A stretch of DNA of 64,000 bases from Deltaproteobacteria bacterium (GCA_040218735.1 JAVJQW010000047.1:32001-96000); one strand, 5' to 3'; positions 9,235 to 60,138 are shown, counted from the first letter of the stretch. The notes: a model not told the origin generated them from the sequence alone. A program made the numbers and translations.

Positions 9235-9327
9235 CACGTTCAAAGCTCGCTCATTCGGTTGCGATTCGCAAAGGTTGGTCCGACCCACACCGTCGCCCAA
9301 CAGGCGACGGTCACCCACGCGCTACGC

Positions 9328-38034: not shown

Positions 38035-38420
38035 TACTCCTTCACGCCGTCGACGCCGTCGCAGTTCTGGTCGACCTCGTCGCCTTCGGGATCGTCGGCC
38101 GTGGGATAGACCATCGGATCCATGTCGGCGCAGTCGTCGGGCGTGCAGAAGCCGTCTTCGTCGAGGTCTTCTTCGCCGTCCGGGCACACCGCCGCGGCGA
38201 CGCAGTACGGATCTTCGGTGTCGTCGGGATCGCAGGGCGGGAGGCCGTAGCAGGCCATCAAGGTCATCGCGAGGAGGCCGCCGGTGCCGAGGCCCATGAC
38301 CCGGCGAGCGAGGCGCGGGAGCACGCGGGAGGCGACCGGCGTCGGCGCGCAGTTCGGGCACGCGGCGAGGTGAACAGGGATGAAGCCGTTGCAGTCGGAG
38401 CAGGAGGAGAGGTTCGTCAT
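38034..38420 (-). CDS. Small zinc-ribbon/membrane protein with CYG motif and acidic metal-binding repeat (putative rSAM substrate)
   Basis: CSDC-x10-CPNC, hydrophobic segment ending LMACYGLPP, D.DEDG...DC.D.DP..YP...DQNCDG; TAATG overlap with the rSAM gene. Confidence 0.75.
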   Translation of the reverse strand: MTNLSSCSDCNGFIPVHLAACPNCAPTPVASRVLPRLARRVMGLGTGGLLAMTLMACYGLPPCDPDDTEDPYCVAAAVCPDGEEDLDEDGFCTPDDCADMDPMVYPTADDPEGDEVDQNCDGVDGVKE

Positions 38421-38597
38421 GCGCGTTGCCCAACGCAACGACCGGGCCAACACCAACGGACGTGCCTCGGCGAGCGCCCAACGGGGCAGCGCTGTCGTAC
38501 AGCGGTGTGCCGTAGATTCACAGCGCTACCGTCGTTCCAGAGACGGACGGATCCGCGGCGTTTGTCGAGGCGCTGCGGCACGCGTTGTTCTAGGCGC

Positions 38598-42260: not shown

Positions 42261-43547
42261 ATGATGTTGTCCTTGGTCCTCGGTGCGGCGATCGCCGCGT
42301 CCCCTACGGCCGACCTCTCGAAGATTCAGTGGATGCACGACGACGCGCCCGGCGCGTTCGCGAAGGCGAAGAAGGCGAAGCAGCTCGTCGCCGTCGATGT
42401 GTGGGGGACGTGGTGTCACACGTGCCTGATGATGCAGAACTTCGCGTTGAAGGAGCGGCCGATGGCGAAGGTCGCGAACAAGCTCGTGTTCCTCGCGATG
42501 GAGTACGAGTCGGACAAGAACACCGACTTCTTCGCGAAGTTCCCGATCAACGCGTTCCCGACGTTCCTGGTGATCGACCCGAAGACCGAGAAGGTCGTCG
42601 CGCGCTGGGTGGGGTCCGGGACGTCCGAGCAGATGGCGGAGTTCTTCGCGACCGCGGACCCGAGCGACGATCGACCGTCGGTGCGGGCGCAGCGACTGAT
42701 CGCGAAGCGCAGCTACGCCGAGGCGATCGAGATCCTGGAGGGTGCGCTCGCGAAGGCCTCGGCGACGGAGCGGAACGCGCTCTACCCGCCGTACATCGAG
42801 GCGCTCTGGAAACACGACACGAAGGCCTGCGCGACCAAGGGCGCCGAGCACCTGGATCGATTCGACGATCGCACCGCGGCGGGGATCGATTCTATGCTGC
42901 TGCTCAGCTACTGCGCGACGGCGCTCGAAGATCCCAAGCCGCTCTACGGTCGGCTCGCGAAGCGCCTCGCGACGGTCGCCGCCAAACCTCCGAAGTCCTT
43001 GGAGGCGGACGAGGTCGCGGGAGTGATGCTCGGGCTCGCCGACGTCTACGACGCGCTCGGGGAGAAGAAGAACGGTGACGCCGCCGCGAAGAGGGCCGCG
43101 ACAGTGCTGGAGCAGGCGGCGAAGCGCGCGCCGTCGATCGCGGTGCGCACGACGTACGACTACCACCGGCTCCTCGCGTACGTGCGCCTCGGCCGTCACG
43201 CGGAGGCGCTGAAGATGCTGACCGCGTCCGAGAAAGCGCAGCCGGACGACTTCAACCACCCGCACCGCATCGCGTACCTGTACCTCGAGCTGGGCAAGAC
43301 GAAGGAGGGCCTCGCGGCGATCGATCGTGCGCTGAAGATCGGGTACGGCGGGCGGCGGCTGCGGCTGCACGCGACGAAGATCGATCTGCTCCTGAAGGCG
43401 AACCGCCTGACGGAGGCGCAGGCTCAGGTCGACGCCGCGAAGAAGGAGCTGGCTTCGATGAACCCCGCCAACACACGTCAGGGGTGGATCGACATGCTCG
43501 AGGCGCGCGCGAAGAAGGTCGAAGCGCAGCTCAAAAGCAGGGGATGA
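42261..43547 (+). CDS. Exported thioredoxin-domain/TPR protein
   Basis: Signal peptide; GTWCHTC, AFPTF; C-terminal TPR-like helices. Confidence 0.8.
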   Translation: MMLSLVLGAAIAASPTADLSKIQWMHDDAPGAFAKAKKAKQLVAVDVWGTWCHTCLMMQNFALKERPMAKVANKLVFLAMEYESDKNTDFFAKFPINAFPTFLVIDPKTEKVVARWVGSGTSEQMAEFFATADPSDDRPSVRAQRLIAKRSYAEAIEILEGALAKASATERNALYPPYIEALWKHDTKACATKGAEHLDRFDDRTAAGIDSMLLLSYCATALEDPKPLYGRLAKRLATVAAKPPKSLEADEVAGVMLGLADVYDALGEKKNGDAAAKRAATVLEQAAKRAPSIAVRTTYDYHRLLAYVRLGRHAEALKMLTASEKAQPDDFNHPHRIAYLYLELGKTKEGLAAIDRALKIGYGGRRLRLHATKIDLLLKANRLTEAQAQVDAAKKELASMNPANTRQGWIDMLEARAKKVEAQLKSRG

Positions 43548-44406
43548 GCCCCTTCTTCGGGAAGTAGTAGCCGAAGACAAAACACATCTCGTCGGCGGCC
43601 GAGGGCCCGTACTCGACGGTGAAGTCGTCGGCGTTGTCGTACGTGCACTCGAAGCGGACGACGTCACCGTTGGTCACGGGGATGGGGTCGTCGAAGAACT
43701 CGACCTCCGGGTCGTCCCAGCGATCGTTCGAATAGACCTGATCGGACTGACCGTCGCGAATCACCTGCGTGGTGGCGAGGACACCGCGCTGGTGAAAGTG
43801 TGATGACATCGAGAGCAGACCGATCGTGTCGCGGATCGTGCAGTCTTTCTGGATGGTGGTGCGTTCGTTGGGCGGGAGCGTGATCTCGAGCGTCGTGAAC
43901 CCGTAGAGGTCGACGTGGGTCCGCGCCGGCGCCTCGGCGGTGTGCAGATTGAGCGCGAACTGCTGCTCGGCCGGCGCGTCGGTCACGTTGATCCAGTGCA
44001 GCTGCATGATGATGAGGGTGTTCGGCGGGAGCGGGAACGCCATCCCGTCCGGGAAGCGGTAGTCGACCGCGCCCGACGAGCCGTCGACGATCGGGCGCGC
44101 GCCCACGAAGAGCTCGAACTCGTCGGGGCACGGACCGAAGCCATCCTCGCGCTCGAGATCCGACATGAAGATGTTGAAGTGGTGCTGCCCGGGGCGCTGG
44201 TTCGTCTGGAAGCGAACGACCTCCAGCTCCTCGGCGTTGTTCATGTTGAGGTGGTAGCAGCGCGTGCGCTCCTGCCCCGCGTCGAGGACGAAGGGCTCGG
44301 AGAGGAGCTGCACCCCGCGCTCGGGGGGTTCGAGCAGGCCGTCGTAGCCGGCGACGCCGCTGCCGCACGCCGACAGGAGGGCGACGGCGAAGATGCTGAC
44401 TCTCAT
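43531..44406 (-). CDS. Copper type II ascorbate-dependent monooxygenase-like lipoprotein (PHM/DBH fold)
   Basis: LSAC lipobox; HH (GQHHFN), MQLHW, HFH, DEMC copper-ligand motifs. Confidence 0.8.
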   Translation of the reverse strand: MRVSIFAVALLSACGSGVAGYDGLLEPPERGVQLLSEPFVLDAGQERTRCYHLNMNNAEELEVVRFQTNQRPGQHHFNIFMSDLEREDGFGPCPDEFELFVGARPIVDGSSGAVDYRFPDGMAFPLPPNTLIIMQLHWINVTDAPAEQQFALNLHTAEAPARTHVDLYGFTTLEITLPPNERTTIQKDCTIRDTIGLLSMSSHFHQRGVLATTQVIRDGQSDQVYSNDRWDDPEVEFFDDPIPVTNGDVVRFECTYDNADDFTVEYGPSAADEMCFVFGYYFPKKGLIPCF

Positions 44407-44752
44407 GCGAAGCGACACTGCAGACTCGAAGCCAACCGTGAAAGCTGTCGTCTTGGGAAGGTGGGGCGACGATTCGGCCCAACTCGGGCGGCCCGAATCG
44501 CGCGGCGTTGACAGTTCGTAAGCTGTACAGACTTGCCCACACCCTGTTGCCTCTTGCCCTCGGGGGCGTCGTAGCACCGCTGACTTCAGCGGCGCACAGC
44601 GGGGTTCGGTTGTAGTCCGCGCGCGCAGTGCCGTCGCCGCGCACGCTTGTCCACGAGTTCCCACATGTTGGGACGATCGCGATTTTGTTGCGTCTTCCTC
44701 GTTCAGCGCCGAACGCGACGCGCGGTTCAGGACGAGGGATCCGCACATCGGG

Positions 44753-44767
44753 TGGCACGTCCGTTGC
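44753..44767 (+). promoter_or_regulatory. Sigma54 (-24/-12) promoter
   Basis: TGGCACG-TCCG-TTGC matches the consensus exactly, 66 nt upstream of the precursor ATG. Confidence 0.8.
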
Positions 44768-44833
44768 GATGTTCGTGCGTTCGACACCGAGCGCCGCGGG
44801 AGATGCGGCGTTCTCAAACGATAGGAGATCGAA

Positions 44834-45094
44834 ATGAAAGCACCGACCGTCAACGCGCGCGCGATCGACACTTGCGCGTCGTCCATGAACGCCGCGACGG
44901 CCCGTCCCGAGTTCGATGCCAAGGGCATCGAGACCTGTGCCTCGTCGTCCAATGCGCCGAGTGAGGCCGTGGCGAAAGCCGAGCCCGACTTCGAGCGTCA
45001 GCCCATCTCGACCTGCGCGTCGTCGATGTCTGCGCCCGGACAGATGGACTCGTTCACCACGGCGGCCGCGCGCACGCCGAACAAGTTCGTCTGA
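44834..45094 (+). CDS. Putative multi-core RiPP precursor peptide (3x IxTCASS)
   Basis: AGGAG RBS at 44823-44827; 86 aa; three P-x-[VF]-x4-I-x-TCASS-x-[NS]-A repeats; lies directly before the RRE and two rSAM genes. Confidence 0.85.
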   Translation: MKAPTVNARAIDTCASSMNAATARPEFDAKGIETCASSSNAPSEAVAKAEPDFERQPISTCASSMSAPGQMDSFTTAAARTPNKFV

Positions 45095-45102
45095 GCTTGG
45101 AC

Positions 45103-45145
45103 ACGTCCCCGCGGGTCGGCCACGGCCGCCCGCGGGGCGTCTTTT
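45103..45145 (+). terminator. GC-rich hairpin plus short T tract after the precursor (leaky terminator or mRNA stabiliser)
   Basis: acg(t)ccccgcggg(t)cggcc / ggccgcccgcggggcgt followed by CTTTT. Confidence 0.65.
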
Positions 45146-45162
45146 CGGAAAGGTCACAGGTC

Positions 45163-45678
45163 ATGCACGAACGAAGAACACCCCGGCTGATGCGCCACGT
45201 CCGCCTCCGCAAACGCGAGCCCGTCGCCTACGACGGGAAGAAGCGAACGATCTACGAGCTCAACGACGTCGCCGCCGCCATGTTGCGGCTCGCCGACGGC
45301 AAGAACGACGTCGACGTGATCGCCGAGGCGGTCGAGAGCGACGCCGAAACGGTCCGTGCCTTCATGGACGACTGCGCGGCGGCCGAGTTCGTCGAGTGGC
45401 TCGACGGCGACGCCGCGACCTACCGCGTGCCCGAGCTGGAGAAGGGCTTCCGGCTCCGCAGGAACGAGCCGATCGGGTACTCGGGGCAACAGTCGGCGAT
45501 CTTCAAGCTGAACCCGACCGCCTACGAGATCCTGCAGCAGGTCGACGGCGAGCGAGACGAAATGCAGATCGCGATTCGCTGCACGAGCGAGGAACAGGGC
45601 GGCGCCTACCTGGCGACGTGCCGACGGTTCCTGGAGCGCTGCGCTTCGGAAGGGATGGTCCGATGGAAGACCGCCTGA
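45163..45678 (+). CDS. Stand-alone tandem PqqD/RiPP recognition element (2 RRE domains)
   Basis: Internal duplication: IYELNDVAAAMLRLADGKNDVDVIA..VRAFMDDC / IFKLNPTAYEILQQVDGERDEMQIA..CRRFLERC, the typical PqqD LN..A..I...DG pattern. Confidence 0.85.
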   Translation: MHERRTPRLMRHVRLRKREPVAYDGKKRTIYELNDVAAAMLRLADGKNDVDVIAEAVESDAETVRAFMDDCAAAEFVEWLDGDAATYRVPELEKGFRLRRNEPIGYSGQQSAIFKLNPTAYEILQQVDGERDEMQIAIRCTSEEQGGAYLATCRRFLERCASEGMVRWKTA

Positions 45679-46619
45679 ACCTGTACGGCACGCCGCACCG
45701 CCTGCGCGACGACGAGCTGCTCGACGAGCTCACTTCTCCCTACTTCGCGACGTGGTACTGCACACGTCGCTGCAACCTGTCTTGCGCGCACTGCTTCGTC
45801 GACGTCACGTCGGGCGGGCGCGACCCGATCGACACCGAGACCGCGATGCACATGATCGATGGGCTCGTCGAAAACGACGTCTACCAGCTGGGCTTCGCCG
45901 GCGGAGAGCCGTTCCTTCGGCCGGACTTCTACACACTCGCGGCGTACGCGCGGGACCAGGGCCTGACGATCCAGGTCGCGACGAACGGCCTCTTCCTCGG
46001 CGACGAGCCGGTGGAGCGGCTCCTGGACGTGGGCTTTCGGTGCATCCAGATCAGCCTCGATGGCGCGACCGCGGCGAGCCACGACGTGCTGCGCGGCGCC
46101 GGTCGATTCGACGCGGCCCTCGAGGGCGTTCGCGCTGCGGTGCGCAAAGAGCTCCCGGTGGTGCTCGCGATCGCGGTGCACCGCGGGAACCTCGACGAGG
46201 TCGAAGCGATGGTCGACCTCGCGGAGCGCGAGGCGGCGATCATCCTGAAGGTGCAGCCGGTGTTCACGTCCTTCGCGTGGCGCGGCGAGGACGGCGCGCT
46301 GACGCCGGACGAGGTGCGCGACGTGGTCGCGCGGGCGCGTCGGCGAGCCCGGAGCGTAGAGCTGTCGATCCCACGGTGGGCGCAGATCCTCGAGGATCGC
46401 TCCGGCGAGCGCACCTGCGCGTCGACGCTCCGCAACGTGTCGATCCTCGACGACGGCCGGCTCTCCCTGTGTGACTTCGGTCCGGAGCACGCCTTCGGCG
46501 ACGTCACGCGGAACGACTTCTTCGACGAGTGGCGCCAGGTCGTGTCCCAGCACCACCTGCGGCAGCGGTGCGGGTGCACGCGGTACCTCGAAGCGGAACA
46601 GAAGGAGGTGGCGGCATGA
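45663..46619 (+). CDS. Radical SAM enzyme with short Twitch-like C-terminus
   Basis: CNLSCAHC, GGEP, TNG, QISLDG; C-x17-C and a terminal CGC only. Confidence 0.9.
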   Translation: MEDRLNLYGTPHRLRDDELLDELTSPYFATWYCTRRCNLSCAHCFVDVTSGGRDPIDTETAMHMIDGLVENDVYQLGFAGGEPFLRPDFYTLAAYARDQGLTIQVATNGLFLGDEPVERLLDVGFRCIQISLDGATAASHDVLRGAGRFDAALEGVRAAVRKELPVVLAIAVHRGNLDEVEAMVDLAEREAAIILKVQPVFTSFAWRGEDGALTPDEVRDVVARARRRARSVELSIPRWAQILEDRSGERTCASTLRNVSILDDGRLSLCDFGPEHAFGDVTRNDFFDEWRQVVSQHHLRQRCGCTRYLEAEQKEVAA

Positions 46620-47743
46620 ACCCGATCGCGCCCTACTCGGTCACCTGGTACATCACCAAGCGCTGCAACCTGACTTGCACGCACTGCTTCAACTACGAGC
46701 CCTGGGAGACACCGCGACGCGCGGACGAGGAGCTCGACTTCGACGACGCCAAGGCGATCGTCGACCAGCTCGCCGACGCGGGGGTGTTCAGCCTCGCGTT
46801 CGGCGGCGGCGAGCCGCTGACGCTCCCGTGGTTCGTCGACCTCATCGAATACTGCGACCAGGCTGGCATCGACACCTTCCTGTCGACGAACGGTGCGCTC
46901 CTCGATCGGCGAAAGGTCGAGCGCCTCGCGGCCGCCAACGTCACCGTCGTGCAACTCAGCCTCGACGGCGCGACGAAGGCGACCCACGACGCCATCCGCG
47001 GCCCTCGGAACTTCGACCACGTGATGCGCGCTGCCGGGCTGCTCGAGGAGCTGGGCATCGACGTGCAGTTCGCCTTCACGCTGATGAAGACGAACCAGGA
47101 CGAGATCGACGACCTCCTCGACCTCTGCATCGAACAGCGCGTCCCGATGCTGAAGCTCCAGCTGTTCCTCCCCACCGGACGTGCCGCGGAGGACCGCGCG
47201 CTCACCGTGCCCCCGGAGCAGTTTCGTGCGATCGTCGACAAGGTGAAGGCGTTCGAGCGCGCGTCCGGCGGCAAGCTCGCCGTCGACTACCCCTGCTTCA
47301 CCGGGCACATGGACGGCCTCGCGGAGTCCAACTGGCGCCTGGGCGAGAAGGCCACGAAGCTCTCGTGCGGCGCCGGCACCACCCGCGCCGTGATCTTCGA
47401 AGACGGCTCCGTCGGCACCTGCGAGTTCATGCGCGACGACAGCGCTTCCGACCTGCGCAAGGAGTCGTTCCTCGACGTGTGGCACGGCGGCCACGACGCC
47501 ATCGAACGCTGGCGGCGCCTGAACCTCGTCCACGGCAAGTGCGGCTCGTGCGGGTACCAGTCGGAGTGCGGCTACGGCTGCCGCGCCAACGCGTACTTCG
47601 CGGGCGGCGACTTCTACGGCGACGACCCGTCGTGCATCGCATCGCCCCCCGAGGGCGTCGAACACCCGTACTACGCAAAACAACGCGCCGTCCGAGCACC
47701 GCCGAACGGCCTCGTCCAAATCGGAGGGCTCGCCGCCCCGTGA
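46616..47743 (+). CDS. Radical SAM/SPASM peptide maturase (PqqE/MftC-like)
   Basis: CNLTCTHC, GGGEP, SLDG; C-x17-C, CxxC-x5-C-x3-C-x17-C. Confidence 0.92.
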   Translation: MNPIAPYSVTWYITKRCNLTCTHCFNYEPWETPRRADEELDFDDAKAIVDQLADAGVFSLAFGGGEPLTLPWFVDLIEYCDQAGIDTFLSTNGALLDRRKVERLAAANVTVVQLSLDGATKATHDAIRGPRNFDHVMRAAGLLEELGIDVQFAFTLMKTNQDEIDDLLDLCIEQRVPMLKLQLFLPTGRAAEDRALTVPPEQFRAIVDKVKAFERASGGKLAVDYPCFTGHMDGLAESNWRLGEKATKLSCGAGTTRAVIFEDGSVGTCEFMRDDSASDLRKESFLDVWHGGHDAIERWRRLNLVHGKCGSCGYQSECGYGCRANAYFAGGDFYGDDPSCIASPPEGVEHPYYAKQRAVRAPPNGLVQIGGLAAP

Positions 47744-48288
47744 TCCGAATCGACGACGGCGACCTCGTCCTCCGCAGCCCGACGCTCGACGACGCCCCGG
47801 TCATCTTCGCGGCGGTCGACGCCGACCGGGCACGGCTGCGCCGATGGCTGCCGTGGGTCGACCTCACGAAGACCCCCGACGACACCCGCGCGTTCGTGGA
47901 GCGGAGCCTCGCCGGGCTCGAAGCCGGCACCGCGATGGACCTGGTCCTCCTTCACGACGGCGCGTTCGCCGGGCTCGCCTCGCTCGTCGACATCTCGTCC
48001 GCGAACCGCCGCGCGATGATCGGCTACTGGATCTCGAGCGGCCGCGAAGGGCGCGGCCTCGTCACCCGGGCGGTGCAGCGGCTCCTCGCCCACGGCTTCG
48101 ACACCCTCGGCCTCGAACGCATCGGCCTGTACGCGGCGACCGACAACACACGCAGCCGCGCCGTCGCGGAGCGCTGCGGCCTCACGTTGGAGGGCGTGCT
48201 GCGCCACCACGAATTCGTCGACGACCGCTTCGTCGACCACGCCGTCTACGCGATCCTCGCCGAGGAGTGGCGCGATGCTCGGGGCTGA
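47740..48288 (+). CDS. RimJ/RimL-type GNAT N-acetyltransferase
   Basis: WLPWV, IGYWI...GRGLVT, NTRSRAVAERCG; GTGA overlap with the rSAM gene. Confidence 0.9.
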   Translation: MIRIDDGDLVLRSPTLDDAPVIFAAVDADRARLRRWLPWVDLTKTPDDTRAFVERSLAGLEAGTAMDLVLLHDGAFAGLASLVDISSANRRAMIGYWISSGREGRGLVTRAVQRLLAHGFDTLGLERIGLYAATDNTRSRAVAERCGLTLEGVLRHHEFVDDRFVDHAVYAILAEEWRDARG

Positions 48289-49639
48289 TCGGGTCGAGAC
48301 GATCCGCGCCGCGCACGCGCTCTCCGAGCACCGCGCCGAACGCCCCGCGCGCGCCCCCGCGCCACAGGACTGGTCGACGTGTGTCCCGCCGCTACACTTC
48401 CCCGGCGCGGAGCTGCTCCCGGCGACCGCGCGCCACCGAAACATCTCCGTCGCCGACACCCTCGCCGGGCGCTGCCCGCAAGCGCCGATCGACATCGGAA
48501 CGATCGCCCTGCGCACCCTCGGCGTGACGGTCGAACGGCGCCGCGGCTCGAGTCGCTGGTTCTGCCACGCCAACCCGTCGAGCGGGAACCTCCACCCCAC
48601 CGAGCTGTACGTCCTCGACGGTCGCGACGTCCTGCATTTCGCAGCGCGCGAAGGCGCGTTCGCGCGCATCGGCCGCCTCGAAGACGAAGCCCCCACGACG
48701 TTCGTCCTCACGCAGATCGCCGAGCGCCAGTGCTGGAAGTACGGCGACCGCGGCGTGCGCTACGCCGAGCTGGACCTCGGGCACGCCGTCGCGGGGCTGC
48801 GTCTCGCCGCCGCGAGTCACGGGCACGAACTGAGACCGATCGACGGCCTCTTCCTACGCGATGTCCTGGGACTCGACGGTCGCGAAGGCGAGACGATCGG
48901 CGCTGCGTTCACGACGGGGGCGCTCGACGCGATCACCGTCGAGCATCTCCTCCCCGCGTCGAAGCTGCGTGGCTTCGACTGGCCCGGCGCACGGAGCACG
49001 GCGCGCGCGATCGAACGTGCGCCGTTCACGACCTCGCGCGGGCACGCCCCTTCGGTCCGGATCGACGGTGACTTCGACGCGGTCGTCACCGCACGCCGCA
49101 GCGCCGCCGCTTTCGCCGACGCGCCGATCTCCCGCGACACCTTCGACCGCCTCCTGGAGTCCACGCTCGGGGGCAGCGCCTTCCTCGGGGCGGCGTCGGT
49201 CGACCTCCTCCTCTTCGTCCACCGCGTCGAAGGCCTCACGCCCGGCGCCTACCTCTTCCGTCGCAGCGACGCCGATCACTCGAACGCCTTCGACCCCGAC
49301 TTCGGCTACACCCCGGTCGGACCGCGACTGTACCGGCTCGACGAAGACGACGTCCGCGCCCACGCCCGCGCGGTGCACGTCGACCAAGCGGTCGCGAGCG
49401 ACGGCGCGTTCTGCCTGACGATGCTCGCGCCGCTCGACGAAACCCTCGCGACCGAAGGCGCCGGCGCCTACCGACGCCTCCACCTCGAAGCCGGCGCGAT
49501 CGGCCACGTGCTCTACCTCGGAGCGACCGCCCTCGGCCTCGGCGCCACGGGCATCGGCGCGTTCTACGACGTCGCGTTGAAACAGATGCTCGGGACCGAG
49601 CTCACGCCGCTGTACGGCTTCGCGGTGGGTGCGACCTGA
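48275..49639 (+). CDS. SagB/ThcOx-type nitroreductase-family flavoprotein (two domains)
   Basis: NPSSGNLHPTELY, WKYGDRGVRY..LDLGH, RRS, EAGAIGH.LYL...GIGAFYD. Confidence 0.85.
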   Translation: MLGADRVETIRAAHALSEHRAERPARAPAPQDWSTCVPPLHFPGAELLPATARHRNISVADTLAGRCPQAPIDIGTIALRTLGVTVERRRGSSRWFCHANPSSGNLHPTELYVLDGRDVLHFAAREGAFARIGRLEDEAPTTFVLTQIAERQCWKYGDRGVRYAELDLGHAVAGLRLAAASHGHELRPIDGLFLRDVLGLDGREGETIGAAFTTGALDAITVEHLLPASKLRGFDWPGARSTARAIERAPFTTSRGHAPSVRIDGDFDAVVTARRSAAAFADAPISRDTFDRLLESTLGGSAFLGAASVDLLLFVHRVEGLTPGAYLFRRSDADHSNAFDPDFGYTPVGPRLYRLDEDDVRAHARAVHVDQAVASDGAFCLTMLAPLDETLATEGAGAYRRLHLEAGAIGHVLYLGATALGLGATGIGAFYDVALKQMLGTELTPLYGFAVGAT

Positions 49640-49646
49640 GGTCGGC

Positions 49647-50042
49647 TCAACGACCGTTGCCGGTGTCGTTCCCCGAGTCGCGCACCCCGGCGTCCGGGCA
49701 GCCCGTGCCCCACGCCGCGAGGACCATGTTCAGGTCGCGCACGTCGACGACGCCGTCTTCGTTGGCGTCGCCTTCGGGCCCTGGCTCGCCCCACAGCTCC
49801 TGCACGAGATCGAGATCCACGCTGTCGACGCAGCCGTCGCTGTTGATGTCCGCGGCGTGGGACGGCCCGCCATCGCGGCGCGCGAACCCGCCGTCACGTG
49901 TGCCCGCATCGAGGAACCCCGCGTCGACTTCGTTGCCCGCGTCGCGCGCTTCGTCGAGCTCCTCGATTCGAGGATCCGGCTCGAGCACGATCGGCCCGCA
50001 CCCGGCCGTGAAGAGCAGCGCGACGATCAGAGCTCGAACCAC
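49647..50042 (-). CDS. Small lipoprotein with one dockerin-like (paired EF-hand) domain
   Basis: TAGC lipobox; DINSDGCVDSVDL...WG / DANEDGVVDVRDL...WGTGC. Confidence 0.75.
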   Translation of the reverse strand: MVRALIVALLFTAGCGPIVLEPDPRIEELDEARDAGNEVDAGFLDAGTRDGGFARRDGGPSHAADINSDGCVDSVDLDLVQELWGEPGPEGDANEDGVVDVRDLNMVLAAWGTGCPDAGVRDSGNDTGNGR

Positions 50043-50794
50043 TTCGTGAGCTCCTGCGCACGCGCGGTGCCGGGTTGGCGCGCGACGAGCTCGCGCGCAA
50101 TGACACGTCCGCGCTCCACACGATTCATGCGCGCGTAGCAGACGGCGAGGTAGTAGAGCGCTTCTTCTTGCAGGACCCCGCGAGGGAACGTGCGCCGGTA
50201 GCGCTCCAGCAGCTGCGCGGCGCGCTGCAGGTCTTCGCCCGCCGCGACGAGTGGAACGGCCTCCGAGATCCACGCCTCGCCTTCACTCGCGTCTTCGGGG
50301 AGACATCGCGTCGCGGACTGGCCCGCGGTCAGGAGCACAGCGTCGTAGCCCTCCGCTTCGACGCGCACCATGCCGTGGCGAACTTCGACGTCGGTGCAGA
50401 GTCCTTCGGTCTGCACTGTGAAACCCGTGCCGACGACCTCCACCAGCGCGGACGGTGTCCGCACGCGGAAGGGCGAGCGGTGCTTGCGCTTCGGCACCTC
50501 GAAGCTCGCCCGACCGCGCGCGAGGTAGAGCTCGGTCGCGACGGCGTCGTCGCGTTCGACGGTCAGCTCGCTTCCCGGGGCCTCTTCGATCGTGGGCGCC
50601 ACCGCGACCGGCGCTGCGACGCGCGGCGCGGGCACGAGCTGCCAGCACACCACGGCGGCCGCCATGGCGGTGGCGAGACCGAGCACCAGCGGCCCCGACC
50701 GCCGACGACGACGGGCGTGGATGCGTTCGAGGGAGCCGCGCACGATTCGGTCATGCACGTCGGGGCGCGGCGCGAGGCGAGCGAGGTGCCTCAT
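50027..50794 (-). CDS. FecR-domain anti-sigma factor with TPR tail
   Basis: Single TM; GRASFEV, FRVRTP..VEVVGTGF.V, V.HGMVRV; YRRTFPRG.L.EEA. Confidence 0.85.
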   Translation of the reverse strand: MRHLARLAPRPDVHDRIVRGSLERIHARRRRRSGPLVLGLATAMAAAVVCWQLVPAPRVAAPVAVAPTIEEAPGSELTVERDDAVATELYLARGRASFEVPKRKHRSPFRVRTPSALVEVVGTGFTVQTEGLCTDVEVRHGMVRVEAEGYDAVLLTAGQSATRCLPEDASEGEAWISEAVPLVAAGEDLQRAAQLLERYRRTFPRGVLQEEALYYLAVCYARMNRVERGRVIARELVARQPGTARAQELTKWFEL

Positions 50795-51327
50795 GCGCCC
50801 GACTCCAGCTCCGCGATCCCGTTCGTGGGCCGATACGCCGCGCGGAACGCTTCACGCGCGCGGCGCAGCCTGCTCGCGACGGCGGGCTCGGCGAGGCCGA
50901 GGATCTGTGCGGCTTCGCGACGCGTGAACCCTTCGATGTCCATGAGCACGAGCACCTCGACGTGCCGTATCGGCAGGCGCTCCAAGACCGCGCGGACCTC
51001 GAGATCGTCGTCGATGTTCTGTCCGGCGAGCGACGGGACGGTGCTCTCGTCCTCCAGGAAGAAGACACGTTTGCACCACGCGAGCCGACGACGGTTCGCC
51101 GCGTGCCTTCGGGCGATCTGGTACAGCCAGGACCCGAGCACTTCGTCGCAGCTGCAGGTGTGGATTCGCGCGGCGGCGGTGGCCAGAACATCCTGCACGG
51201 CGTCCTCCGCGTCTCGCGAGGAGAGGCCCAGCAGGACGCACCACCGGTACACGGCGCTCGCCCACGCATCGACCAATCGTCGCCAAGCCCACGCTTCGTC
51301 GGCCTGGCAGCCCTCCACCAAAGACAT
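50791..51327 (-). CDS. ECF RNA polymerase sigma-70 factor
   Basis: DAEDAVQDV, SWLYQIARR, EGFTRREAAQILGL...VASRLRRAR; start could be GTG at 51336. Confidence 0.88.
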   Translation of the reverse strand: MSLVEGCQADEAWAWRRLVDAWASAVYRWCVLLGLSSRDAEDAVQDVLATAAARIHTCSCDEVLGSWLYQIARRHAANRRRLAWCKRVFFLEDESTVPSLAGQNIDDDLEVRAVLERLPIRHVEVLVLMDIEGFTRREAAQILGLAEPAVASRLRRAREAFRAAYRPTNGIAELESGA

Positions 51328-51332
51328 CGGTT

Positions 51333-52400
51333 TCACGGTGCTGATGTCTCCGTGCGGCGGTTCTGATCCTCGCCCCGCTCGATTTTCGTCGCCGAACCGA
51401 AGAACGACCACGCGACCTGCAGGCCGACGCGCGCGCCCCAGCGGTTCACCCGCGCCGAGGGGCCATCCGGGATGACGATGTCCCGTGCGGTGGGGAAGAC
51501 GAGCCCTTCGGCGAAGAGCGCGATCGCGAGCGCGTCGGCCCGGACCGTCGCCCCGACGCCCGCGACGCCTCCGATATCCACCGACGTGTGGTCGGCGGCG
51601 TCCGCGATGTCGTCCCGCGTGACGCGCAGCGTCTCGGCGCTGAGGCCGGCGCTCCAGGCGAGCTCGACGTAGCGACCCAGCTCGACCCCTCCGCGATACC
51701 CACCGGTCGCGCCGAACGCCGCGAGCCGGATCGGTCGGCCGTCGAGCGCCCACGTCGCCGTCGGCGCCCCGCTCGCCCGAACGAACCAGCCGTCGCGGGA
51801 GAGCTCGGCGGCGAGCTCCCACGTCGCGACGCCGGGCGTGCGGTAACGCAGCCAGGACTGCACGCCGACCGCGTAGCGCGACTGCGCCCACTGCGGCGCA
51901 CGAACGGCGCTGGCGACCGCGCGGGTCTGCGGATGGATCGGCGGCCACGGAGGCGTCGGCGCCGGCTCGGACTCGGGCGCGACCTCGACGACGGGCGCGG
52001 GTCGACGACGACGACGTTTCGCGGGGCGCGGCGCGACGGGCATCGACGCGACGGAGGGAGGCGGGAGGAGACCGGCGACCGGCTCGAGCGCGAGCGCTTC
52101 GATCATCACGGACAGCTCCGACAGCCGCCCCTGCCCCGCCGCCGAGCGCAGCGGTCCTTCGGGATCCAGGCGCCACGGGAGCTTCCGCCGGCGCGCTGTG
52201 CCGTCGGGTCGTTCGAAGGTCAGCGTCGTCGCGGTGATTCGAATCCGCGCGACCCCCTCGCCGCACCGCGGGTCGATCCGAAGCGTTCGAAGATAGCGCC
52301 CGAGCCGCTCCAAGACGGGAGCGGGGGCCCGCTCCTCGACACACACGCGCGTGTCGAGCGCGGCGCCGAGGAGCAGAGGAACGAGGAGCAGCGGGCCCAC
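51333..52400 (-). CDS. Hypothetical exported protein with C-terminal beta-barrel-like region
   Basis: Signal-like N-terminus, Pro-rich linker, amphipathic beta strands; in the same run as the ECF sigma gene. Confidence 0.55.
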   Translation of the reverse strand: MGPLLLVPLLLGAALDTRVCVEERAPAPVLERLGRYLRTLRIDPRCGEGVARIRITATTLTFERPDGTARRRKLPWRLDPEGPLRSAAGQGRLSELSVMIEALALEPVAGLLPPPSVASMPVAPRPAKRRRRRPAPVVEVAPESEPAPTPPWPPIHPQTRAVASAVRAPQWAQSRYAVGVQSWLRYRTPGVATWELAAELSRDGWFVRASGAPTATWALDGRPIRLAAFGATGGYRGGVELGRYVELAWSAGLSAETLRVTRDDIADAADHTSVDIGGVAGVGATVRADALAIALFAEGLVFPTARDIVIPDGPSARVNRWGARVGLQVAWSFFGSATKIERGEDQNRRTETSAP

Positions 52401-52503
52401 GTCGACACGGTGAGCAAGTGCTGTTCCTCACGCGGTCACTGCGCGCGGCAAGCCCCGTTGCACTTCGTGTGCATTGCGCAACACGTGATGCGCAAACCCG
52501 AGG

Positions 52504-53157
52504 TCAGCTGCAGCCCCGACCCCACGCGGCGAGGAGGATGTTGAGATCGACGGTGTCGACCGTGCCGTCCCCGTTGATGTCGCCGGCGCCGGAGCCGCCC
52601 CAGTTCGCGAGGAGGCCGTCGAGGTCGTCTTCGTCGACGCAGCCGTCGCCGTTCAGGTCCGGAGTCCCGCTCGCGAGGCATCCGGTGCCCCAGTTCGCGA
52701 GGACGATGTTCAGGTCCTGCACATTCACCGTGCCGTCTCCGTTGATGTCCGCCGGGTCCGGCGTCGTGCCCGTCGAGACACCCCACGCCGCGATGACGGC
52801 GTCGAGGTCGTCCTGGTCGACGCACCCGTCGCCGTTCACGTCGCCGTAGACGCCACAACCGGTGCCCCAGTTCGCGAGGACGATGTTCAAATCCTGCACG
52901 TCCACGGTGCCGTTGCCGTCGATGTCTTCGGCGAGGTTGCGACCGGTCGCGCCCCACGCCGCGAGGACCGCGTCGAGGTCGTCTTGATCGACGCAGCCGT
53001 CTCCGGTCGCGTCGCCGCGGACACCGGCGCTGGTGCCCGTGGAGACCTCGGACTCGGAGGTCTCCACGGCGGAGGTCTCGTTGCCCACCGGGCCGCCGCA
53101 CGCGATCAAGAGGAAGGTGAGCGCGCTCGAGGCGCACGTGTGCACTGCTTTGTTCAT
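52504..53157 (-). CDS. Lipoprotein with three tandem dockerin-like domains
   Basis: LIAC lipobox; six Dx(N/T/D)G(D/N)GxV(D/N)xxDL..(V/L)(L/I)A(A/N)WG repeats. Confidence 0.85.
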   Translation of the reverse strand: MNKAVHTCASSALTFLLIACGGPVGNETSAVETSESEVSTGTSAGVRGDATGDGCVDQDDLDAVLAAWGATGRNLAEDIDGNGTVDVQDLNIVLANWGTGCGVYGDVNGDGCVDQDDLDAVIAAWGVSTGTTPDPADINGDGTVNVQDLNIVLANWGTGCLASGTPDLNGDGCVDEDDLDGLLANWGGSGAGDINGDGTVDTVDLNILLAAWGRGCS

Positions 53158-53284
53158 TTCATGGCTCCCTAAGAGATGGATTGGGAGGCGCCTTGCCTCT
53201 CCTGGGGGTGCCAATGTGATGAGGACGCGGAGTTGATCCGCGGCGCGTGAAAAAAGTCAGCTTTCGGGGAGCTCGGACCGACCG

Positions 53285-55090
53285 TCAGAGCTTGTGCTCC
53301 ATCAGGTTGCTCTGCAGGAGATTCGAAGCCTGAGCGCGCGTCATCTTCCCGTCAGCCACCAGCTTCTTCAGGAAAGCGTGTGGACCGATCGGGCTCTTGG
53401 TCGCCGACAGCCGCAACCGGTTGTAGTCCGCGCCATACGGGCCGGGGAGCGTCGAACAAGCCGCGCAGAAGTCACGCATCGTACCGATCAAGTCGGTCAA
53501 CGTGATCTGCACGTCCTCCGCGCCCACGACGCCGAACCGCTCACTCGTCGCCGTCGGGTCGTTGCCGTCGAAGATCTCGCCGACGTGCTCGACGAAATTC
53601 GAAAGGTAGGTTGCGTTGTCCGTGATCCGCGCATGCGCGATGTCGGCGTTGGCATCGAGCAAGTCACAGGTCAGCTCCCCCCAACGGAACTCGTCGTTCG
53701 AGGTGACGACGCCCTGCCCCCAACGATCCGCCGTCGCGGTCAGCGCCGCCAGCCGCCCGACACGTTTCGTCCAGTCCGAGGTGGCGCGCGAATCCTCCGT
53801 CACCCCACGCTTCCTCAAGTGGAACCGCACGTGGTGGAAGCCACATCCGTCGGACGCATCACACGACGCATCGGCGCTCCACAGGTTGCCCCGGAAGGGG
53901 ACCGCGCCGCCGAGCGGGCGAGCCGCCCAACCCCGCCAGTCGCTACACGCGTTCAGAAGATACTGGCCCAGCCCGTTTGCGACGCCCTCCGTGTACTCGA
54001 CGCCGAGCTCCGCATACTGCCCGGCGTAATGTCCCCAGTCGTACGATGTCCCGTCGGCGCGCATCATCGCGTTGCCAAACTCGTAGTGATAGAGCCGCGA
54101 GCCCGGCGCGAGGGAGCCGTGGATGCTGTGACCGAACTCGTGCGCCAGCGTATCGGTGTCGGAGAGGTGGCGGAGCGCCGGGCCGATACCACGCGTGGAG
54201 AACACGGCCTTGTCGGGTCGGAACAAAGACATCCAACCGCCACCCGCGCTGGCCCACTGCGTGTTGAACGCGATGAGGTAGGTCGGCTGGCCTCTGTACA
54301 GCTCGCTCTTCGGGAGCATCTTCTCGAACAGGTCCGGCATGTCGCGTGTGTTCGCCTCCAGGCGGTCGAACAGGGCGACCACGTTTGTGTAACCGTTCAG
54401 CACCTGGCGCATGTAGCCGAACCGATCGTGGGCGCTGCCCGCCGTGAAGACTTGGGTCCCGACGTTCAAGAACGCCCTCCCCTGGGCGTCCTTCACCGGC
54501 TCGAGCCCCACCCACCGAAAGACGAACGTCGGCGTCGCGTAGGGGACGCCGTCGTGTTCGAACGCCGGGACGAGACGATGCTCCGGCTCCGAGCCCAGCA
54601 GGTCAGCGGCGTGCGTGGAGGTCCATGCGGCGCGGATCCACCCAGGCTCGATCGGCGAGCGCGCGCTCGGGTGCCACGCCGGCGCCTCCAGCGCGACCCG
54701 CCCCTCGACCAGTACACGTTTGTCGCGACCACACGACCGCGGGAGGCGGATGTCGAAGACGCCATCGCGATCGACGACGAACGTCCCGCCGCCGCAACGC
54801 CGCTTCGACGTGGGGAGGATCTCGTAGTACGTCAACGACAGGCGTCCCGGTAGCGGTCGCAACGAACCGACCGTCGCGGTGTCCGTCGTGACGAGGGCGC
54901 CAGTCGCAGCGCTGAAGCGCCGCTTGAAGGCGTGGCACTCCTTCCAACCGACACTCTGACTCCACACCGGCGAAACGCAGCCCGTGTCGTCCGGGAACGC
55001 GAGCCGACCGACGATCTGAACCTCGTACGTGCAGGCGGTCGACAGCCCGCAGAACAGAACGATCCACGCAAGAGCATCCGGGCGCTTCAT
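53285..55090 (-). CDS. Putative zinc metallopeptidase lipoprotein
   Basis: STAC lipobox; AHEFGH and downstream TEGVAN (gluzincin-like Glu). Confidence 0.6.
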   Translation of the reverse strand: MKRPDALAWIVLFCGLSTACTYEVQIVGRLAFPDDTGCVSPVWSQSVGWKECHAFKRRFSAATGALVTTDTATVGSLRPLPGRLSLTYYEILPTSKRRCGGGTFVVDRDGVFDIRLPRSCGRDKRVLVEGRVALEAPAWHPSARSPIEPGWIRAAWTSTHAADLLGSEPEHRLVPAFEHDGVPYATPTFVFRWVGLEPVKDAQGRAFLNVGTQVFTAGSAHDRFGYMRQVLNGYTNVVALFDRLEANTRDMPDLFEKMLPKSELYRGQPTYLIAFNTQWASAGGGWMSLFRPDKAVFSTRGIGPALRHLSDTDTLAHEFGHSIHGSLAPGSRLYHYEFGNAMMRADGTSYDWGHYAGQYAELGVEYTEGVANGLGQYLLNACSDWRGWAARPLGGAVPFRGNLWSADASCDASDGCGFHHVRFHLRKRGVTEDSRATSDWTKRVGRLAALTATADRWGQGVVTSNDEFRWGELTCDLLDANADIAHARITDNATYLSNFVEHVGEIFDGNDPTATSERFGVVGAEDVQITLTDLIGTMRDFCAACSTLPGPYGADYNRLRLSATKSPIGPHAFLKKLVADGKMTRAQASNLLQSNLMEHKL

Positions 55091-55710
55091 CGCGCGTCCT
55101 CCACCGAAAGCACCTCGCTCGGTCCTCTCAGGTGCTCCAGCCGGAAGGGGAGCTGCTTCGTCGCCTCGAGCTCTCTCCTCAGCCGTCGCGGATTCTTGCT
55201 GAGCGCCCGCCACTGCGCGGAGACGATCTCCAGCTCGGACGCGACGCGAACGCGGTCGGTGTCATCGATGACAAACGTCGCTTCGGTCCGTTCCGCACGC
55301 GAGCGCGGCCCCCAGACCTCGCAACGCACGCCCGCTCCGTAGCGTCCGAGGAGCACGAGCTCGATTGGAACGCGAACCTCGGTCGCCCCGGGGAGGCTCG
55401 ACACCATCAGCTCGACGGCGCCGGAGCGTTCGCTGTCCGTGGCGAGGGCCCGGGCATGTCGCGCGCCGACCACCCGCGGCTCTGCGTCGAGTCCGAGGCA
55501 CCGGACGCGCGCTGCGCCCTCGGCCAGCGCGAAACGCAGCTCGAGCTGGAGAGGTTGCGCGCGGGTGAGCAGCTTGTCGTTCGAGGCGACGACGATGTGC
55601 GCGCCAAAGGGACCAGGTAAGTCTGAGGGAGGGGTTGCGGTAGCGACTTCAGGCCAACCGACCCACACGAGGAGGACGATCGAAACCAGCCGTGTGATCA
55701 CGGCCGTCAA
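55087..55710 (-). CDS. Hypothetical exported protein
   Basis: Signal-peptide-like N-terminus; 4-nt overlap with the metallopeptidase gene. Confidence 0.5.
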   Translation of the reverse strand: MTAVITRLVSIVLLVWVGWPEVATATPPSDLPGPFGAHIVVASNDKLLTRAQPLQLELRFALAEGAARVRCLGLDAEPRVVGARHARALATDSERSGAVELMVSSLPGATEVRVPIELVLLGRYGAGVRCEVWGPRSRAERTEATFVIDDTDRVRVASELEIVSAQWRALSKNPRRLRRELEATKQLPFRLEHLRGPSEVLSVEDAR

Positions 55711-55761
55711 CTGTGCGCCGCGCTAGGATCTGCAGCATCCTCGCATCGACGTATGGCGCGC

Positions 55762-56448
55762 TCAGGGGCGATCGCGATCGCGGATCTCTTCGTTCGCGTG
55801 GAGTGACTTCGGCTCGAGGACGTCCTTCGGCACCGGCACCTTCGACCACGCGTCCGTCATGAGATCGAAGAGCTCGCGCTTGCGCTCGATCGGCGTGTCG
55901 ACCTTCCGCAGCTCCTCGTACCAGTCGCGCGTGTCCTTCTGGACCTTCAGCGACATCGCGGTGTGGAACTGCAGCTCCCACTCCATCCCCGACGGGTGTT
56001 TCATCACGCCGTTCACGCCGGAGTAGTTGTCGTCCTGCGGCCAGTAGTTCTTGAGCCGCACCACCGTGTGCCCCTGGCCCTCCAGCGCCTGGAGCACCTT
56101 GCGCACCGACTCGACGTAGTGCCCGGCGGGCTCGTCCTCGAAGCGCATCGTGTAGCGGAGGGTGTCGTCGAGCTCCATCTCGGCGATCGGGATCGACGGG
56201 TCCTCCAAGTGCTCCTTGTTGAGCTTGCGCTTCGTCGACTTCAGCGTCTTGAGGCGGTGCTCGATCTTGTACATCTCGCCGCCGAGCCCCTCCGCGAGGC
56301 TGACGAGCGCCGGCGTGACCGTCGGCTCGAGCTTGGCGGCGCGGTCGACGAGCTGCTGCGCTCGCTGATCGATCGTGACGGTCGGCGTCGTCTTGCACGC
56401 GACGAGCGCGAGCAGCAGAGGCGCCAAATATATCGAATGCATTCTCAT
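55762..56448 (-). CDS. RelA/SpoT-like nucleotidyltransferase domain protein with lipoprotein signal
   Basis: LVAC lipobox; RLKT.KS.KRK, DDTLRY, YSGVN, ELQFHT. Confidence 0.75.
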   Translation of the reverse strand: MRMHSIYLAPLLLALVACKTTPTVTIDQRAQQLVDRAAKLEPTVTPALVSLAEGLGGEMYKIEHRLKTLKSTKRKLNKEHLEDPSIPIAEMELDDTLRYTMRFEDEPAGHYVESVRKVLQALEGQGHTVVRLKNYWPQDDNYSGVNGVMKHPSGMEWELQFHTAMSLKVQKDTRDWYEELRKVDTPIERKRELFDLMTDAWSKVPVPKDVLEPKSLHANEEIRDRDRP

Positions 56449-60116: not shown

Positions 60117-60138
60117 GGTCGGAGTAGGATCGGTCCGA

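Follow-up and report, generated by a model that had tools for sequence, protein, structure and literature searches.

A 64,000-nucleotide stretch of DNA from a deltaproteobacterium (referred to below as the window; it is contig C28:32001-96000 of G000, an 11.6-Mb genome in 70 contigs with a GC content of about 70%) carries a compact operon of six genes in 4.9 kb, whose products are, in order, a small peptide containing the sequence Cys-Ala-Ser-Ser (CASS) three times, a protein of the PqqD family, two radical S-adenosylmethionine (SAM) enzymes (here called rSAM1 and rSAM2), a GNAT N-acetyltransferase and a SagB-type dehydrogenase (Table 1). The reading developed here is that this operon probably makes a ribosomally synthesised and post-translationally modified peptide (RiPP), with the PqqD-family protein acting as a separate RiPP recognition element (RRE). 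The five genes that follow the peptide gene run into one another: rSAM1 starts at 45663, within the RRE gene, which ends at 45678; rSAM2 starts at 46616 in an ATGA overlap with rSAM1; the GNAT gene starts at 47740 in a GTGA overlap; and SagB starts at 48275, before the GNAT gene ends at 48288. All of these overlaps, as well as a sigma54-type box, a ribosome-binding site (RBS), an open reading frame (ORF) for an 86-residue repeat peptide and a hairpin, had been pointed out in a preliminary description of the window and are present as it described them; its identification of a double RRE, two radical SAM enzymes, a GNAT protein and a SagB-type protein agrees with the Pfam and NCBIfam matches, and it was also right that the operon contains neither a protease nor an exporter.

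The same order of genes (precursor, RRE, rSAM1, rSAM2, then either GNAT or a DUF455 protein, then SagB) occurs in four genomes belonging to three lineages: G000 itself; a genome of the same genus (G001, contig L003), where all six genes are present in the same order with 55-85% protein identity; a member of a different family (G076, locus L016), again with all six genes in unchanged order, in DNA of 50% GC; and a metagenome-assembled genome of the Polyangiales (G401, locus L019), in DNA of 69% GC. The four loci together span 50 to 70% GC. Relative to G000, the identity of rSAM1 falls from 80% (G001) through 52% (G076) to 39% (L019), and that of rSAM2 from 85% through 60% to 52%. In every one of these loci, the four for which a close rSAM1/rSAM2 pair and its context are known, a CASS peptide is encoded directly upstream of the enzymes, so that the conserved peptide on which the preliminary description had staked its proposal is indeed there.

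Table 1. Features of the operon and its promoter region (positions are those of the window).
Feature	Position	Strand	Basis
Conserved upstream block, about 28 nt	44675..44702	+	near-identical in G000 and G001, flanking intergenic DNA diverged
sigma54-type -24/-12 box TGGCACGTCCGTTGC	44753..44767	+	exact TGGCAC-N5-TTGC match
RBS AGGAG	44823..44827	+	6 nt 5' of precursor ATG 44834
Precursor peptide, 86 residues, three units P-x-[F/V]-x4-I-x2-C-A-S-S-[M/S]	44834..45094	+	ORF reading, homologues
Stem-loop and U-tract	45103..45145	+	folding, directly 3' of precursor stop
Tandem PqqD-family RRE protein, 171 residues	45163..45678	+	PF05402 in two stretches
rSAM1, 318 residues, CX3CX2C and short four-Cys C-terminal auxiliary-cluster domain (Twitch-like)	45663..46619	+	Pfam, alignment
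rSAM2, 375 residues, radical SAM with full SPASM domain	46616..47743	+	Pfam, alignment
GNAT N-acetyltransferase, RimL/RimJ type	47740..48288	+	Acetyltransf_3, 97.1 bits
SagB-type two-lobed nitroreductase-fold (flavin mononucleotide) dehydrogenase, 454 residues	48275..49639	+	TIGR03605, PF00881

In the G000 precursor the CASS sequences lie at residues 14, 35 and 61, and each core has its own upstream stretch of 10 residues, the first of which starts at residue 4; a long leader distinct from the cores is absent. The homologues of this peptide are P0001, P0002, P0005 and P0160. That of G076 has 147 residues, with three CASS cores and a tail of KDVQH repeats (the copy number of this KDVQH/KDVQA repeat, at 2270-2360 of L016, differs between P0005 and P0160, which have 147 and 127 residues respectively), while that of L019 (6281-6634) has 117 residues, a single core (...PDFLTVVVGG-CASSM...) and a tail of about 75 residues rich in Gly/Asp repeats. 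In the L019 peptide the residues V-V-G-G immediately before the Cys are double-glycine- or lipobox-like in appearance, and the complementary strand can be read as an ORF rich in proline.

If one precursor is taken for each type of locus, ten independent cores are available for comparison. Seven positions are the same in all ten, namely P(-10), F/V(-8), I/V(-3) and C, A, S, S; M(+4) and A(+6) each occur in eight, and the remaining positions are variable. Thr at -1, just before the Cys, is found in six of the ten, and the conserved core is therefore P-x-[F/V]-x4-[I/V]-x2-C-A-S-S-[M], to which the Thr does not belong. The threefold TCASS core of the preliminary description must be amended to this extent: the three repeats stand, as CASS(M) rather than as TCASS. 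The repeat is not an artefact of composition. When the 11.6-Mb genome was read in six frames, just three stop-to-stop segments carried at least three CASS within 100 residues, the two besides the precursor being low-complexity repeats, and of 27 occurrences of I..CASS genome-wide, three fall within the precursor ORF. Between G000 and G001 the ratio of non-synonymous to synonymous polymorphism (pN/pS) is 0.27 for the precursor, the enzymes spanning 0.26-0.53, and the precursor is under purifying selection comparable to theirs; the RBS block AACGATAGGAGATCGAAATGAA is likewise unchanged between the two genomes. The precursor matches no Pfam or NCBIfam family, the MftA and PqqA models included, which agrees with the earlier view that it resembles neither of those peptides, and protein searches with the precursors returned only P0001, P0002 and P0160 (in the second of them among 8000 scored candidates, with noise from the Gly/Asp tail of the L019 peptide).

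Searches for further loci gave a consistent picture of rarity. When 401 genomes of the phylum were searched with rSAM1, with scoring limited to the top five candidates in each, strong matches were obtained in G000, G001 and G076 (E 1e-97), the next lying at 2e-30; the order and the class of G000 add nothing to this, both consisting of the same 20 genomes that had been covered. Two peptide patterns, scanned against a single genome from each species, gave 68 loci, among which only L017, L018 and L019 were close (E ≤9e-62; the next 9e-29), and in a 401-genome sample of the order to which L019 belongs the sole match was in the centre genome itself. Among 1.84 billion proteins the rSAM1 family is represented by eight sequences with E ≤1e-45 (P0006-P0013, 281-332 residues; the cluster representative of the G000 protein itself was not among the matches listed), all metagenome-derived and all singletons or tiny clusters. 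Below these the scores fall to generic SPASM/Twitch proteins, and a metagenome scan with the rSAM1 alignment, dominated by the generic CX3CX2C pattern, yielded no new family member (best 2e-32). The cluster is real and very rare. A general physiological system is unlikely because of this extreme rarity, and the product is more likely to be a specialised metabolite confined to a few lineages of the Myxococcota.

The RRE protein of G000 matches PF05402 (PqqD) with 46.9 bits and that of L019 with 31.9 bits, the cut-off being 23.4. The two halves of the G000 protein are 35% identical to one another (E 4e-17), and its identity to the orthologues is 77% for G001 and 37-40% for G076. In L019 the RRE is a single domain, nearer to the C-terminal half of the tandem form. 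A tandem RRE accompanies a three-core precursor in three of three loci (two of which belong to one genus), and a single RRE accompanies a one-core precursor in one of one. Among 61 related genomes the tandem form was found in two, G000 and G001, and a word search with the protein returned just the two same-genus proteins, a search which also missed the RRE of G076; for P0004 a precomputed assignment to PF26491 is on record. When the tandem RRE and the precursor were modelled as a complex, the score was 0.21 against a mark of 0.32, which speaks neither for nor against binding.

Both radical SAM enzymes have an invariant CX3CX2C motif (C37/C41/C44 in rSAM1, with 84.7 bits for Radical_SAM PF04055; C17/C21/C24 in rSAM2, with 102.7 bits), and because this motif lies only 16-36 residues from the start neither can carry a fused RRE. 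At its C-terminus rSAM1 has four invariant Cys (C252/C270/C303/C305), hence enough for one auxiliary cluster; it has no Pfam match to SPASM, and these four conserved Cys fall short of the seven that define a full SPASM domain. In rSAM2 all seven are present and invariant (C251, C269, C309, C312, C318, C322 and C340), as is C227, and the SPASM PF13186 score of 21.4 bits, just below the cut-off of 21.5, rises to 34.0 bits in the L019 orthologue. The best relative of rSAM2 in the PDB is PqqE (E 1.5e-20), and the sequence matches of rSAM1 there are SkfB (top) and PqqE, at E about 1e-17, together with CteB (5WGG). An AlphaFold 2 (AF2) model of rSAM1 (predicted local distance difference test, pLDDT, 78) has BlsE, SkfB (in second place), DesII, PqqE and SuiB as its nearest folds, a general Twitch/SPASM set that does not discriminate between chemistries. 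The nearest solved relatives of the two enzymes (SkfB, PqqE, SuiB) are peptide-modifying or Twitch/SPASM enzymes. Several of the next-nearest relatives of rSAM1 (P0014-P0017, P0021 and P0022) consist of two radical SAM proteins fused into a chain of 640-850 residues, one of them a fusion of ScmE and ScmF, and pairs of such enzymes therefore recur as units.

The SagB-type protein scores 86.4 bits against TIGR03605 (cut-off 78.4) and matches PF00881 in two stretches, and the motifs SSGNLH, [K/R]YG-RG-RY--LDLGHA and RRSA are conserved in all four loci. Its only relative in the PDB is the uncharacterised 3EO7, and an AF2 model from a four-row alignment (mean pLDDT 48.9) was too poor for a fold search. 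The GNAT gene is found in the G000, G001 and G076 loci; in L019 its position (9060-10127) is taken by a DUF455 ferritin-like protein, probably di-iron. Because the GNAT can be replaced in this way it would appear to be an accessory tailoring or immunity enzyme, and the presence of SagB in all four loci, set beside the replaceable GNAT, suggests that dehydrogenation is integral to the pathway and acetylation accessory. SagB-type enzymes are known for oxidising azolines that have been formed by a YcaO protein, and no YcaO gene was found in the operon or in the examined flanks of the four loci, which places them outside the thiazole/oxazole-modified microcin (TOMM) systems. The one YcaO of G000 (PF02624; contig C43:10002-12987) lies beside a sigma54 activator gene and is unlinked to the operon. 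A SagB paralogue on contig C42, of 35% identity, was set aside, as it adjoins a glutathione-transferase-like gene and a tRNA synthetase gene and has no peptide cluster.

Expression of the operon may depend on sigma54. The box upstream of the precursor is the only exact match to TGGCAC-N5-TTGC in the 64-kb window (0.04 expected; at least one match in 4 of 100 shuffles). In G001 the form GGCACG-N4-TTGC is retained while the bases around it diverge, and in L019 the best sigma54-type match of the locus, TGGCACATCGGCTGC, lies 53 nt 5' of the precursor ATG, giving a box 5' of the precursor in three of the four loci; in L016 none was found 5' of the precursor within two mismatches. A match to rpoN occurs once in the genome, and the AAA+ domain of enhancer-binding proteins is matched 90 times, the closest activator gene encoding an FHA-domain sigma54 enhancer-binding protein (window 59743-61794, + strand). 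By these sequence features, which include GG at -24 and GC at -12 in the right spacing, the operon has a putative sigma54-dependent promoter, and the conserved block located roughly 50-80 nt 5' of the box is possibly a site for an enhancer-binding protein or for integration host factor (IHF).

Directly after the precursor stop codon, the segment 45107-45137, followed by UUUU, folds into a hairpin of -40.7 kcal/mol (z = -3.9; none of 200 shuffles folds as well), and a strong hairpin occurs at this point in all four loci in unrelated sequences (z -2.5 to -4.3). It is probably a leaky terminator or a transcript stabiliser; comparable hairpins in other RiPP operons raise the ratio of precursor to enzyme transcript. 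A TTG at 45097 was ruled out as start of the RRE gene, since the reading would cross the hairpin and ATG 45163 aligns with the start in G001. At the other end, the operon stops with SagB, because synteny with G001 resumes immediately afterwards, at window position 55766.

What, then, does the operon do? It probably directs the synthesis of a RiPP of the RRE-dependent radical SAM type, most likely by modification of a small ribosomal peptide at its Cys-Ala-Ser-Ser motif. Four observations fit a pathway of this type: the CASS peptide strictly co-occurs with a PqqD-type chaperone; two radical SAM enzymes lacking an RRE of their own share the locus with a SagB-type dehydrogenase; the arrangement is conserved over three lineages down to 39% enzyme identity; and the genes are translationally coupled. 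The features by which RRE-dependent radical SAM RiPP loci are generally recognised, a conserved precursor ORF adjoining the enzymes (in 4/4 loci) and an RRE of the PqqD family, are both present.

A plausible course of events can be outlined as follows. A sigma54 promoter would drive a transcript with the precursor gene first, and the hairpin would probably let precursor mRNA exceed enzyme mRNA. Each 15-residue unit would bring its own recognition stretch, P-x-F-x4-I, to be bound by the stand-alone tandem PqqD/RRE protein, which would hold out the neighbouring invariant C-A-S-S to rSAM1 and rSAM2, neither of which has an RRE of its own. Both rSAM2, with two auxiliary clusters, and rSAM1, with one, would abstract a hydrogen atom and carry out a two-electron oxidation at or next to the Cys, resulting either in a crosslink of the thioether type that joins the sulfur of the Cys to a carbon atom within A-S-S-M or in oxidation of the Cys beta-carbon such that a ring could close. 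The SagB-type flavoprotein might then take two further electrons, dehydrogenating the new ring or bond, so that each core could lose up to six electrons to the three enzymes together. Optional tailoring or self-protection would come from the GNAT or, where there is a single core, from DUF455, and proteolysis and export would be left to genes elsewhere. Gene content, conservation, motif, co-occurrence and rarity are observations; we infer that the RRE binds the P-x-F...I stretch and that the Cys is the reaction site, as well as the order of the steps and the type of chemistry. With regard to the last of these, the option given most weight is a Cys thioether crosslink that is subsequently oxidised, although it falls a little short of an even chance; a Cys-derived heterocycle made without YcaO is given somewhat less weight, and some other chemistry, for instance epimerisation or oxidation of the formylglycine type, appears less probable again. 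Analogies are the Cys-to-Met thioether of SkfB, the oxidation of Cys by anaerobic sulfatase maturases, and the Lys-Tyr pair of azoline oxidases.

Several points weigh against this interpretation and need to be kept in view. The genomic context comes from four loci, two of them of one genus, with P0007, P0008 and P0010-P0013 outside that set. There is no classical leader, the first core unit beginning at residue 4; M(+4) is not invariant, so that a strict Cys-to-Met crosslink is weakened; and no conserved protease or exporter lies near any of the four loci. With YcaO missing in all four, the role of SagB is assigned by analogy only, and in G076 its Lys-Tyr pair has Arg in place of the Lys. Finally, the top NCBIfam matches of both radical SAM enzymes, albeit far below the cut-offs, are tetrapyrrole enzymes (AhbD, NirJ).

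This last point bears on the possibility that the enzymes act on a non-peptide substrate, such as a tetrapyrrole in the manner of AhbD or NirJ, the CASS ORF being an unrelated small protein or regulatory peptide. AhbD, NirJ and NirJ2 are indeed the best NCBIfam matches of both enzymes, but the scores are low: for the two enzymes they are 120.3 and 181.5 bits for AhbD, at best about a third of the cut-off of 500, 111.4 and 143.7 bits for NirJ (cut-off 515), at most 175.1 bits for NirJ2 (cut-off 500), and 108.1 and 140.3 bits for AhbC (cut-off 650). The preliminary description had named a clustering with enzymes such as AhbC/AhbD or NirJ as something that would refute it, and this comparison of scores (as distinct from a tree) does not do so. 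Nor is the AhbC, AhbD or NirJ cut-off reached among the next-nearest relatives of rSAM1, of which 67 (P0014-P0080) out of 150 representatives listed were scanned against NCBIfam. Given in addition that a PqqD-family peptide chaperone is present in all four loci, that the CASS ORF is conserved in register over three lineages, and that no tetrapyrrole gene is adjacent, a non-peptide substrate seems very improbable. An equally slender chance attaches to the idea that the CASS peptide itself works as a small protein (a carrier of thiols or metal, or a lipobox-like decoy), the enzymes being co-regulated with it and not acting on it. Its N-terminus is not leader-like, and V-G-G before C-A-S-S in L019 recalls what we take to be the residues around lipoprotein cleavage sites; against this, three internal copies cannot all serve as lipoboxes of a signal peptide, acidic residues precede the Cys in L019, the genes are translationally coupled, and in 4/4 loci the peptide strictly accompanies an RRE and a pair of radical SAM enzymes that lack one.

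Closer in kind to the RiPP interpretation is the proposal that the peptide is a scaffold from which a small cofactor or a metal-binding unit is made, comparable to pyrroloquinoline quinone (PQQ), mycofactocin or methanobactin. Here the CASS segment would be oxidised, cyclised and excised, in up to three copies per precursor, to give a redox-active or metal-binding product used in or near the cell, with the GNAT capping the freed amine. Only C-A-S-S is invariant, multi-copy cores are typical for small excised products, and the combination of a stand-alone PqqD, a SPASM enzyme and a flavoprotein mirrors PqqD/E and MftB/C/D; the lack of a conserved exporter or immunity gene in the four loci also fits. 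Weak hints of metal come from a divergent Cu2_monoox_C lipoprotein gene in G000 and G001, a metal-type ABC-3 transporter 5 kb downstream in L016, and the DUF455 ferritin-like protein in L019. Metallophores of the RiPP type with a Cys-derived thiooxazole do exist, according to PMC11626156 and PMC12668002. However, these metal-related neighbours are not common to the lineages, a gene for an excision peptidase is found in none of the four loci, the extremely sparse distribution is unlike that of a housekeeping cofactor, the MftC and PqqE scores lie below cut-off, and the precursor matches neither MftA nor PqqA, so that on balance a product of this kind, though to be taken seriously, is considered improbable.

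There remains the bolder suggestion of the preliminary description, that the operon represents a new RiPP class. In the form considered here, radical SAM enzymes in place of YcaO would ready the Cys of each C-A-S-S for ring closure, SagB would aromatise the ring, and the result would be up to three metal-binding or redox-active CASS units made under sigma54 control. So specific a version is unlikely to be correct in full, and the new class stays a candidate; if true, it would amount to a YcaO-independent route to a heterocycle of the thiazole, thiooxazole or unsaturated-thioether type.

Comparison with characterised systems does not lead to an existing assignment: no enzyme of the operon reaches an NCBIfam equivalog cut-off (AhbD/NirJ, MftC, PqqE, Scm). 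In the mycofactocin (MftA/MftB/MftC) and PQQ (PqqA/PqqD/PqqE) systems, as here, a stand-alone PqqD-family RRE delivers a small ribosomal peptide to a radical SAM/SPASM enzyme that has no RRE, and a flavin-dependent or other oxidoreductase acts later; MftC is also one of the highest-ranking NCBIfam matches. In contrast to those systems, the present one has two radical SAM enzymes, a tandem RRE and a three-core precursor, and is without MftD/E/F or PqqB/C. For the two radical SAM enzymes the scores are 108 and 166.6 bits for MftC TIGR03962 (cut-off 265) and 92.5 and 124.2 bits for PqqE TIGR02109 (cut-off 381), placing the operon in neither system, and the RRE scores 27.9-31.5 bits with the PqqD equivalogs, whose cut-offs are 46-101 (TIGR03859, 27.9 against 46). 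The SynChlorMet cassette (TIGR04248/04250/04251) likewise combines a PqqD-type protein (ScmD) with two radical SAM enzymes (ScmE and ScmF), but rSAM1 lacks the full SPASM domain, neither a CASS peptide nor SagB is known to us from it, and the scores (ScmD 16.1 against 100; ScmE 93.7 and 88.7, ScmF 88.6 and 89.5, both against 400) are far too low for membership. Among the 67 scanned relatives of rSAM1 there is one clear match at equivalog level, P0016, a fused ScmE-ScmF protein that passes both Scm cut-offs; P0022 has a summed score above the MftC cut-off, yet its best family is AhbD-like (426 against 500).

The maturases of sactipeptides and ranthipeptides (SkfB, CteB, StsB, PapB-type) resemble the present enzymes in being Twitch/SPASM radical SAM proteins and act on Cys-containing cores, some of them repeated. 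In those enzymes, however, the RRE is fused N-terminally, whereas here it is a separate protein; to our knowledge none of those systems includes a SagB-type dehydrogenase; and the scores (StsB 80-100 bits against 625; SkfB 66.8 bits against 300) are low. The TOMM or linear azol(in)e systems (SagBCD, McbBCD) have a SagB-family flavin mononucleotide-dependent dehydrogenase beside a core rich in Cys and Ser, as here, but the YcaO cyclodehydratase and its E1-like partner are missing from the four loci, which have radical SAM enzymes instead. Short repeated motifs with one or two radical SAM enzymes are also a feature of the His-Xaa-Ser (HxsA-D) and ACGX-repeat peptide systems, which differ in their motif, their use of the RRE and their accessory genes; rSAM2 scores 114 bits with rSAM_ACGX (cut-off 400), and no Hxs model was among the matches listed. 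With SbtM, the "thio(seleno)oxazole modification radical SAM maturase", rSAM2 scores 85 bits (cut-off 350). None of the family models and solved structures searched describes the precursor or this set of enzymes, and in literature of mostly open-access coverage (subscription journals mostly outside, supplements unsearched) nothing was found on a CASS precursor or on a radical SAM enzyme with SagB and without YcaO, nor was the term SynChlorMet found.

The locus would probably be flagged by generic RRE-based mining tools. If the peptide is modified as proposed above, it defines an undescribed precursor family, P-x-F-x4-I-x2-CASS, together with two undescribed radical SAM subfamilies and a new working context, without YcaO, for SagB-type dehydrogenases. 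The three-core and one-core orthologues offer a natural comparison of tandem and single RREs on multi-core substrates, and the operon would show a RiPP pathway under sigma54 control in which a hairpin is conserved behind the precursor gene. Because the system is compact, the substrate short and the recognition motif clear, the proposal is directly testable by co-expression.

The surroundings of the operon differ between lineages. Divergent from the precursor promoter in G000 and G001, and absent from the G076 and L019 loci, is the Cu2_monoox_C lipoprotein-like gene (window 43531-44400, - strand; L003 7981-8865), and upstream in both genomes there is also a thioredoxin-TPR protein. In G076 an ion channel lies upstream, and a HAD hydrolase, a Kazal-domain protein and the ABC-3 transporter lie downstream; in L019 there is a POT transporter 5 kb upstream, and a pseudouridine synthase and a response regulator downstream. 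Directly after the operon in the window, a 6.1-kb segment (49645-55765) is missing from the syntenic G001 contig and constitutes an indel; its genes code for proteins with dockerin/EF-hand repeats, for a FecR-like protein and for an extracytoplasmic function (ECF) sigma factor.

Another radical SAM/SPASM gene is situated 7 kb upstream of the operon (window 36802-37989, - strand), its nearest models being nif11-class maturase 3 (418.5 against 725 bits) and a GDL-motif maturase (357 against 592 bits). Directly upstream of it is a 140-residue ORF rich in Cys and Asp with a weak MopE-type metal-binding motif (38034-38456, - strand), and the two may form a separate peptide-modification pair.

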